IMG/VR virus record: IMGVR_UViG_3300020576_006967
Span: 1 to 64,000 of that record
From: a virus
Taxonomy: Duplodnaviria; Caudoviricetes
DNA length: 64,000 nt
Direction: 5' to 3' (one strand)
Below are positions 1,870 through 2,302 of the stretch, piece by piece (positions within the stretch are counted from its first letter, which is position 1; each line of letters opens with the position of its first letter). The notes under the pieces were generated by a model, which was not told where the DNA came from, searched no databases, and saw only the letters and a list, made by a program, of their open reading frames with translations. The position numbers and the translations under genes are program-made.

Positions 1870-2003
1870 GGGGAGGTAGCTCAGTTGGTAGAGCAGAAGA
1901 TGTAACTACTTGCAAAATTACCTCTGTTTAGTCGGAGGCCATTTGTTTAAGATACTTCTACTTTGAAAACTTTGGGTCGCATGTTCGAGTCATGCCCTCC
2001 CCA
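1870..2003 (+). ncRNA. tRNA-scaffold RNA with ~60-nt structured insertion in the anticodon arm (anticodon undetermined)
   Basis: GGGGAGG/CCTCCCC acceptor, canonical D arm GCTC-AGTTGGTA-GAGC, T arm GCATG-TTCGAGT-CATGC. Confidence 0.75.
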
Positions 2004-2204
2004 CAAAATTAAATTAAATGAAAAACTATTGGTATATAAAAGGATATTGCTATTGGGAAAAAGAAATTAGCAAAGATGAAGAAGGAAACATCTGGGTTAA
2101 TATCGGATGGCACTTACCACTACGTTCAACAGGTGAATAAACAATTCAGTATTTGGCAGCAATATCTGGTTTGCATTATTCTCAAACATTTAATTAAAAA
2201 GCAT

Positions 2205-2302
2205 GGGGGAGAAGGTTCTTACTTACAAAATTTCCTTCGATTTAAAGAAGGCCACTTGTATAGTTACTTCTCATATTGGTTCGATTCCAAACTCCCCCAC
2301 CA
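2205..2302 (+). ncRNA. D-arm-less tRNA-like RNA ending ACCA, carrying a homolog of the 1870-2003 insert
   Basis: GGGGGAG/CTCCCCC-ACCA, TTGG-TTCGATT-CCAA T arm. Confidence 0.7.

Follow-up and report, generated by a model that had tools for sequence, protein, structure and literature searches.

Two tRNA-scaffolded RNAs in a phage tRNA cluster are circularly permuted members of an RNA module family associated with a conserved protein gene

We examined a window of 64,000 nucleotides (nt), the first 64 kb of the 188,933-bp IMG/VR phage record IMGVR_UViG_3300020576_006967 (G000; estimated to be 74% complete, ~32% G+C), which contains a dense transfer RNA (tRNA) cluster at positions 900-8050. Two tRNA-like elements in this cluster, here called E1 and E2, have in common a module of ~52 nt (Table 1). 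A sequence-only reading of the window had proposed that two tRNA scaffolds between positions 1870 and 2302 carry the same structured domain, and this was confirmed. The shared-core pattern matched the window exactly twice (1913-1946 and 2226-2259) and never in 100 dinucleotide-preserving shuffles, and orthologues of both elements were found in a second phage. The two scaffolds had been described as a full one with D and T arms and one that lacks the D arm and encodes its own CCA end, and sequence and fold agreed with this description. E1 combines an acceptor stem of 7 bp with a canonical D arm and a T arm of 5 bp, and it scored 49.1 bits on the Rfam tRNA model (RF00005, model positions 1-71), where the gathering score is 29; its orthologue, at 43.1 bits, also lay above that score. 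E2 consists of a 7-bp acceptor stem (2205-2211/2292-2298), a 4-bp T arm (2276-2290) and a discriminator A at 2299. It has no anticodon arm and gave no match to RF00005.

Table 1. Positions of E1, E2, their parts and related genes in the window.
Feature	Coordinates	Strand	Description
HNH homing-endonuclease gene	1273..1863	+	directly upstream of E1; phrog_10822, E = 7e-42
E1	1870..2003	+	tRNA-like RNA, 134 nt; tRNA-Phe(GAA)-type body, anticodon loop interrupted by the module
E1 acceptor strands and T arm	1870-1876 + 1996-2002; T arm 1979-1995	+	read from sequence
E1 D arm	1879..1894	+	GCTC AGTTGGTA GAGC; read from sequence; same arms in the Infernal alignment of the orthologue
E1 helix P1, 5' strand	1895..1899	+	AGAAG; can pair with CTTCT 1955-1959 (RNA fold)
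Module in E1	1908..1959	+	regular-expression parse; all family invariants (GGC.A, TACTTCT, TT.CC)
E1 3' remainder	1960..1978	+	U-GAA-AA, 3' anticodon-stem strand and short variable loop
E2	2205..2302	+	RNA 2205-2299, then CCA 2300-2302; tRNA 'top-half' minihelix bearing the module, no D arm
Module in E2	2221..2271	+	regular-expression parse
RtcB RNA ligase gene	17895..19265	+	phrog_1075, E = 1e-97
Kinase/phosphatase-like gene	38759..40303	+	phrog_246, E = 3.8e-28; phrog_505 (polynucleotide kinase family), E = 5e-4
Nucleotidyltransferase gene, possible CCA-adding enzyme	50327..52030	+	phrog_388, E = 2.7e-49

The module of E1 reads, from 5' to 3', P3' (ACTT), G, P2' (CAA), AATTA, a capped outer stem (1921-1938), CCAT, P2 (TTG), TTT, P3 (AAGA) and TACTTCT. 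The corresponding order in E2 is ACTT, A, CAA, AATTT, a capped stem (2234-2251), CCAC, TTG, TA, TAGT and TACTTCT. The CTTCT strand to which the AGAAG of E1 helix P1 can pair is part of the invariant TACTTCT, and AGAAG occurs in E2 as well, at 2210-2214. By regular-expression parse, every family invariant is present in E1, in E2 and in the E2 orthologue. Among the four copies of E1 and E2, the internal loop AATTW opposite CCAY, helices P2 and P3, and TACTTCT were conserved; the terminal loop was not. P3 is formed by ACTT with AAGA, TAGT or AAGT, giving 3-4 of 4 possible pairs. Two sets of compensatory changes had been claimed from the sequence. The first, CCTCT/GGAGG versus CCTTC/GAAGG, is real, but the second, GCAAA/TTTGT versus TACAA/TTGTA, was an artefact of register, as P2 is CAA/TTG in all four copies and covariation of P2 appears only when they are compared with the array units described below. 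A conserved 8-nt loop containing TTTA was not borne out either: the terminal loops of the four copies are TTTAGT, CTTGA, GATTTAAA and TTCACTTC.

Orthologues of both E1 and E2 lie in the contig IMGVR_UViG_3300037524_002067 (L003; the metagenome contig L024 is the same phage). The two phages are highly diverged, with only ~3.7 kb of the window's genome alignable to the second phage at E<1e-20, and the elements showed column identities of 92% (E1) and 84% (E2). The E1 acceptor stem carries a compensatory change from G-C to A-U, the capped outer stem differs between the phages with pairing retained, and the terminal loop of E2 was completely swapped, GATTTAAA for TTCACTTC. The encoded CCA of E2 is not kept, the orthologue having ACAA. 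E1 and E2 show signs of selection: they are kept between barely alignable phages, with compensatory changes in the acceptor and outer stems and free replacement of the terminal loop. The gene order around them is rearranged between the phages. An open reading frame (ORF) of 40 codons, at 2020-2141 in the window, lies 3' of E1 here and 3' of E2 in the second phage, and a different HNH gene stands at the equivalent place in the orthologous locus. What follows E1 on its 3' side in the window matches the sequence 3' of E2 in the second phage, which suggests that the two elements have recombined through the module they share.

The same core, in another circular permutation, forms a tandem array of six units at G000:130178-130780, which is ~66 kb past the window and 128 kb downstream of E1 and E2. 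An array unit reads, from 5' to 3', an outer stem ending in GG, CCAY, P2 (3 bp) and 2 nt, P3 (4 bp), TACTTCT, a variable loop, P3', 1 nt, P2', AATTW, and CC with the closing strand of the outer stem. In general terms, the outer stem of a family unit is variable and ends in G-G/C-C; it is followed by an asymmetric internal loop in which C-Y-A-Y lies opposite N-N-U-U-W (strands GGCYAY and NNUUWCC), by P2 (3 bp) and P3 (4 bp), and by the invariant, single-stranded UACUUCU(A), after which comes a variable payload. Most phages have such units in tandem arrays, open at the outer stem. In E1 and E2 this topology is reversed relative to the arrays. The outer stem is capped by a loop, and the tRNA body together with the RNA ends takes the position of the variable loop. 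Since the payload is an open tRNA body or minihelix and the outer stem is capped, the ends of the RNA are the ends of the tRNA.

A covariance model (R1) was built from 7 units. It picked up units on which it had not been trained in a third contig (G002), and its yield rose to 32 and then to 106 units in ~35 phage contigs. The sequence-only reading had called for a covariance-model search of phage contigs and had named an absence of both expression and covariation among homologues as evidence against a functional domain. In the resulting alignment of 106 distinct units fitted to R1 (A8), 90.5% of cells were paired, as compared with 60.1% in shuffles and 34-46% in register-slid controls, and 14 of 14 modelled pairs showed compensatory changes on both sides. 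A structure specified by hand on a MAFFT alignment of the 7 units gave 88.8% versus 66%, with 10 of 14 pairs compensatory. The motifs GGC.A, UACUUCU (usually followed by A) and UU.CC were invariant in 101-106 of the 106 units. The module is thus shown to be a widespread non-coding RNA family of phages, with a fold backed by covariation and in several circular permutations. The earlier idea of a structured RNA domain displayed on tRNA scaffolds is therefore supported, but its confinement to two copies is not, since the family has more than 100 members. The nuclease decoy put forward in the same reading is one candidate role for the domain.

Searches outside this set gave the following picture. 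Within the window's own genome R1 matched the array only. Nothing comparable was found in 121 kb of unrelated RtcB-encoding phage records or in 590 kb of bacterial contigs; the latter contained 120 exact-pattern matches, all of which were chance matches by R1 score (<=23.7 bits). Exact-pattern scans of viral and metagenome contigs returned only the same second phage and contig G002, and the family is too variable for exact patterns. There was no unit in L022, which encodes a relative of a neighbouring protein of 148 amino acids, nor in four phage records with a 58%-identical RtcB. In Rfam 15, no family except tRNA itself matched E1, E2 or the arrays, so that a known RNA family, which had been named as grounds for rejecting a novel domain, was not encountered. 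The structure may already be listed, without function, in the 2023 catalogue of ~10,000 viral candidate RNAs (PMC10690425).

The units are linked to one protein gene, which we call Z. It came to light as the ORF just 3' of the G002 units; the window's genome has a homologue of this ORF 2-5 kb upstream of its array. Z is a conserved protein of phrog_33734, without assigned function, and has more than 588 homologues of ~690-740 amino acids at 50-60% identity. The contigs with Z homologues all have a gene-free gap beside Z, and R1 located arrays in these gaps (including L212, L214, L215, L216 and L219). Among 49 IMG/VR loci retrieved through Z, with homologues reaching down to ~30% protein identity, R1 found 117 units in 42. 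All units in these 42 loci lie on the strand of Z and start ~10-1000 nt from its stop codon, most of them within tens to hundreds of bases, with a few just before the start of the gene. The six-unit array of the window's genome lies 1.8 kb downstream of Z. Within this Z-associated family of phage RNA modules, E1 and E2 represent two members that are circularly permuted and mounted on tRNA scaffolds.

Several further observations concern the Z locus. In the window's genome the Z gene (G000:C1:125052-128388) is split into parts of 236 and 545 amino acids by a DUF723/treble-clef endonuclease gene (125778-126737), and close relatives (P0002) have an uninterrupted Z of 739 amino acids. The metagenomic contigs L217, L218 and G002 end right after Z, where an array would be expected, and repeats may break assemblies there. 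At G000:C1:133462-134232, ~2.7 kb downstream of the array, there is a Thg1-like gene (tRNA-His guanylyltransferase family; PF04446, E = 4e-27), a neighbourhood that recurs in the 88%-identical relative L212.

The payloads of the array units include tRNA-like structures. In 8 of 106 array payloads a T arm is followed by a closed acceptor-like hairpin, with no D arm, which corresponds to E2 circularly permuted. The unit at L216:9562-9695 adds a D arm and corresponds to E1 permuted. The same module was also seen with ordinary loops as payload. In the second phage, a permuted tRNA-like RNA on the minus strand (G001:C1:27020-27163) is made up of a T arm, an acceptor stem of 7 bp that is closed, and a D arm. 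A 10-bp outer stem brackets this unit (27163..27020), with the 5' strand reading GGCCAT...TACTTCT and a divergent 3' strand (hairpin ATCGC-TGGT-GCGAT). Its tRNA-like part scored 27.8 bits on the Rfam YrlA model, over model positions 24-84 only and against a gathering score of 69. Because ordinary bacterial tRNA arrays score similarly low on the YrlA model, this match was not counted as membership, which we rejected, and YrlA serves here as a description of topology only.

YrlA RNAs belong to the Y RNAs, in which a stem binds the protein Ro60 while another module tethers a partner or mimics a tRNA (PMC4201824; PMC12135203). A comparison with Rfam, including the Y RNA and YrlA models, had been suggested by the sequence-only reading. 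E1 and E2 gave no match to RF02553 (YrlA) or RF00019 (Y_RNA) at E<=5. The module lacks the motif with which Y RNAs bind Ro60, GNCGAA or CGAA close to the 5' stem strand (PMC4201824, PMC12135203), and no TROVE gene (PF05731) was found in the incomplete records G000, G001 and G002. As Rfam score, GNCGAA motif and neighbouring TROVE gene were all lacking, E1 and E2 are not YrlA or Y RNA members. The module family is constructed on the same plan, however, and in this sense the suggestion proved a productive lead. A parallel is the phage phiLo, whose Ro60 binds two adjacent Y-like RNAs (Yrl1/Yrl2) and the host PNPase (PMC12135203).

The structure of Z was predicted with AlphaFold2 from 58 homologues (mean predicted local distance difference test score, pLDDT, 77.5). 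The model has a helical region (approximately residues 20-475) and a beta-rich C-terminal domain that is TerD-like (Foldseek and VIA-align; Z-score 12.0, root-mean-square deviation (rmsd) 2.9, 151 residues). In an exhaustive comparison of the model with 48,161 solved chains, the next three matches after TerD were all Ro60 proteins, namely Thermus phage phiLo Ro60 (9l5y_B; Z-score 9.3, rmsd 6.0, 294 residues), Xenopus Ro60 (1yvp_A; 8.9, rmsd 4.5, 300 residues) and Deinococcus Rsr (2nvo_A; 8.3, rmsd 5.6, 306 residues). Ordinary HEAT-repeat proteins came next, with Z-scores of at most 6.8 over ~96 residues. The neighbours of Z among predicted structures were bacterial clusters annotated 'TerD family' and 'Prok-RING_4 / MXAN_6230-SCO0854' (template-modelling score, TM, 0.74-0.76 over ~650 residues) and not TROVE proteins.

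By analogy with Ro60 and its RNAs, we slightly favour the interpretation that E1 and E2 are Y-RNA-like RNAs in which the module is a putative handle for binding Z and the tRNA mimic is the payload. Following the logic of Ro60 and Y RNA, the module would be the binding handle for Z, and the tRNA-like part would act as effector or bait. The tRNA-like part would also let the RNA be processed or recognised as a tRNA, by RNase P, by CCA addition and by modification enzymes. Since the payload of E1 and E2 is an open tRNA body, these RNAs should mature like tRNAs and could bring Z to tRNA-handling enzymes; they might also tether it to damaged tRNAs or to substrates. Together with Z they may serve the tRNA supply and RNA-repair programme of the phage, which would fit a genome that encodes RtcB, a kinase/phosphatase, a nucleotidyltransferase and a Thg1-like enzyme.

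A number of observations weigh against this interpretation. E1 and E2 do not lie beside Z but in the tRNA cluster, ~123 kb away, and the second phage record (59% complete) has E1 and E2 but no Z. Gene adjacency alone is in any case no proof that Z binds RNA. In place of the Ro-binding motif GNCGAA(N)G/CGAA, 106 of 106 units, and E1 and E2 as well, have GGC(C/U)A(U/C) on the relevant strand. When the helical region of Z was folded alone, Ro60 fell to rank 7 (Z-score 6.3, rmsd 5.4), although its 255 residues made the longest alignment listed, and a Foldseek search with the helical domain returned Ro60 (2nvo) at E = 0.22 and no match at E<=0.001. Z-scores of such size are common for helical repeats. 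At the level of sequence, Z showed no similarity to TROVE (hhalign of 58 Z sequences against six Bacteroidota TROVE proteins gave a probability of 1%), a Pfam search returned nothing at E<=10, and sequence and profile searches against the PDB returned nothing. Finally, Z has a TerD-like domain where Ro60 has its C-terminal vWA domain with its MIDAS (metal ion-dependent adhesion site). Because the structural signal is this fragile, as judged from the fold of the helical region alone, the Foldseek search, the null profile comparison and the TerD/MXAN_6230 neighbours, we treat the resemblance of the predicted Z structure to Ro60 as suggestive only, a lead rather than a finding.

We next consider what the body of E1 is, as this bears on an alternative to a Z-binding handle. 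In the Infernal alignment, the E1 orthologue spans the full tRNA model, and its anticodon loop holds an insertion of 64 nt. Without the insertion, the orthologue has a perfect anticodon stem (AAAGU/ACUUU), the anticodon GAA and the variable loop GUGUC, and is of tRNA-Phe(GAA) type by both Infernal and ARAGORN. For the window E1, the intron mode of ARAGORN returned a tRNA-Tyr(GTA) whose intron of 48 nt lies at 37/38 and whose variable region, 19 nt long, is unpaired. In neither copy is there an uninterrupted 7-nt anticodon loop for decoding, the insertion amounting to 48-64 nt. The flaws as a decoding tRNA differ between the copies: the window E1 has an imperfect anticodon stem, and in the orthologue the T arm is bulged and weakened. 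Both phages encode intact tRNA-Phe besides E1, and intact genes for tRNA-Tyr exist in the second phage. In our view E1 is a scaffold derived from a tRNA and not a functional pre-tRNA.

The sequence-only reading had also offered a protein-spliced intron that the phage RtcB could ligate. In its full form, the module would be an intron in a tRNA-Phe(GAA) or tRNA-Tyr(GUA) gene, a protein endonuclease would excise it, RtcB would join the exons, and the arrays would be processed by the same enzyme. The placement of the module inside the anticodon loop of E1 and its orthologue by two programs, the perfect AAAGU/ACUUU stem with anticodon GAA that remains in the orthologue after removal, the RtcB gene within the window, and an AGAAG/CUUCU helix between exon and insert that adjoins both junctions are what this idea can draw on. 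Yet neither the two programs nor the two orthologues agree on where the exons end or on which tRNA is encoded. On manual check there was no bulge-helix-bulge (two 3-nt bulges and a 4-bp helix), nucleotides 32-35 not being paired with the 3' end of the insert, and no tRNA-intron endonuclease (PF01974) was found in the incomplete records G000, G001 and G002. After removal of the module, the anticodon stem of the window copy is imperfect; the orthologue has a defective T arm and, in the Tyr reading, a C at position 33. The intact tRNA-Phe and tRNA-Tyr genes mentioned above also speak against it, and neither E2 nor the array units, of which there are more than 100, contain exons that could be joined, while their module is still under strong selection. 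Weakly supported as it is, we regard the intron as an improbable explanation.

About equally improbable, in our judgement, is that the module is a small self-cleaving ribozyme, or another processing signal independent of protein, which cuts arrays and tRNA-like precursors and has CYAY, UUW and UACUUCUA as its catalytic core. Hammerhead and twister ribozymes are known in circular permutations and tandem arrays, and so is the present module, whose small unit has invariant unpaired nucleotides between covarying helices and which occurs in phages and in the context of a tRNA cluster. However, permissive cmscan searches of window positions 1-9000 and of the arrays in L042, L051 and L055 matched no Rfam 15 ribozyme family at E<=1-5, and no dinucleotide stood out as a conserved candidate cleavage site. 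Self-cleavage of the insert would break up the scaffolds of E1 and E2, whose acceptor stems are nevertheless maintained. The tight, orientation-specific linkage to one protein gene in ~40 contigs points instead to an RNA-protein complex.

A third possibility, which we consider very unlikely, is that the module is an element for RNA-RNA assembly or docking, forming multimeric particles of the GOLLD/ROOL type with no protein partner. It derives from contig G002, which has three units immediately after a GOLLD RNA (RF02032; 166 bits, with a gathering score of 150). GOLLD sits near tRNA islands and carries tRNAs in its linker (bioRxiv 10.1101/2024.12.08.627333). But GOLLD was not found in the window's genome or in the scanned module locus of the second phage (L051), the general association of the units is with gene Z, which follows them in G002 too, and no conserved partner complementary to UACUUCU was present in the array units or their payloads. 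The arrangement in G002 (L042 / G002:C1:16100-16983) is GOLLD, then, within ~120 nt of it, three units, and finally gene Z. Between GOLLD and the first of these units lies a short element (TGTCGTCTAA..., a hairpin, then GGGTGWAAATCCC), which is found before the unit of the second phage (L051) too. We rejected mimicry of the tRNA-Arg(UCU) anticodon loop by UACUUCUA, since CUUCU forms pairs in both E1 and E2 and the loops of the arrays are large and open. Least credible of all is that E1 and E2 are decaying pseudo-tRNAs that have no role themselves and by chance received copies of a mobile or repeated sequence: each E1 orthologue does have a different defect as a decoding tRNA, the gene order is rearranged with the window E1 sharing its 3' flank with the orthologous E2, and a homing-endonuclease gene adjoins E1, but the two elements are among the few segments still alignable between the phages (84-92% column identity), their changes are compensatory in the acceptor and outer stems and concentrated in the terminal loop, and the design of a tRNA-like part plus module recurs independently, in permuted form, in the arrays of other phages.

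Returning to the interpretation of E1 and E2 as Y-RNA-like RNAs with a handle for Z, a broader proposal can be formulated, to which we attach somewhat less than even confidence. Jumbo phages of this group may have a previously undescribed RNA-protein system, made up of a HEAT-repeat/TerD protein and modular RNAs with one handle and exchangeable payloads, some of which are tRNA mimics in either permutation, and through E1 and E2 this system would enter tRNA processing and repair. Z would then be a possibly very distant or convergent analogue of Ro60, from a cellular family like MXAN_6230/SCO0854, and the set of RNAs would aim one protein at several RNA or enzyme targets. E1 and E2 could act as bait, tether or sensor in a conflict with host defences that cleave tRNAs. 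If the Y-RNA-like reading holds, the two unusual 'tRNAs' are but a small visible part of a large phage RNA family that Rfam 15 lacks, and the Ro60/Y-RNA principle would extend to a new protein and a new RNA motif, with the tRNA mimic in both circular permutations. The orphan protein family Z, with its relatives in cellular bacteria, would gain a concrete partner, and phage tRNA and RNA-repair biology a new player. For annotation, the module accounts for some 'intron-containing' or aberrant tRNA calls in phage tRNA clusters and for gene-free gaps beside phrog_33734.

The tRNA cluster of the window contains further unusual structures. At 4327-4457 there is a tRNA-like gene of 131 nt (Rfam tRNA, 33.9 bits) that is 90% identical in the second phage; in its intron mode ARAGORN assigned it the anticodon CTA (amber) with a 58-nt insertion, and the insert contains AAAATTTCC but not the rest of the module. 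The same mode returned a tRNA-Gly(TCC) with a 12-nt intron at 7867-7972, and a weak Rfam tRNA match (31.7 bits) at 3337-3414 has an odd anticodon region. Three spacers also appear structured. The spacer at 1010-1125, between two tRNA-Phe genes, is G+C-rich and conserved in the second phage, that at 3690-3790 has two successive T-arm-like hairpins, and at 4550-4700 an element of ~150 nt has acceptor-like ends and one T arm.

Several known systems share features with E1, E2 and the module. The tRNA cluster of phage T4 encodes RNAs C and D (species 1 and 2), a stable pair without assigned function, which have tRNA-like termini and share sequence with each other. At the level of this general description only, E1 and E2 are alike, being a pair of RNAs inside a phage tRNA cluster with tRNA-like termini and shared sequence; T4 is not known to have an associated array or Z-like protein. 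GOLLD (RF02032) is likewise a phage non-coding RNA tied to tRNA islands, and in one contig three module units lie directly 3' of it, but the module, at ~70 nt, falls outside the Rfam GOLLD model, and GOLLD is absent from the window's genome. The archaeal and red-algal tRNA genes that are split, permuted or interrupted by introns (bulge-helix-bulge, EndA, RtcB) have in common with the present elements an insertion in the anticodon loop of a tRNA body, permuted tRNA-like units and the presence of RtcB. Here, in contrast, there is no bulge-helix-bulge, no EndA was found, the host appears to be bacterial, and most members of the module family have no tRNA exons.

The closest comparison is with YrlA and Ro60. 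The module has GGCYAY instead of GNCGAA/CGAA, plus the invariant UACUUCU, and its arrays reach 6-8 units. In the candidate partner Z there is no sequence signal of TROVE and a TerD-like domain takes the place of vWA, and the RNA ends of E1 and E2 lie at the acceptor stem and not at the protein-binding stem. Set against these differences, both systems are modular, combining a conserved stem that has an internal loop with a variable or tRNA-like module (T arm, acceptor, sometimes D arm), and in both several different RNAs stand beside one protein gene on the same strand. Both occur with RNA repair genes of the RtcB type, and the longest helical structural matches of the Z model are to Ro60. The tRNA-like modules of both appear in either permutation, as in YrlA versus Yrn1 (PMC4201824), and the joining of a tRNA-like domain to a long conserved stem is found in E1 with D arm, T arm and acceptor and in E2 with T arm and acceptor.

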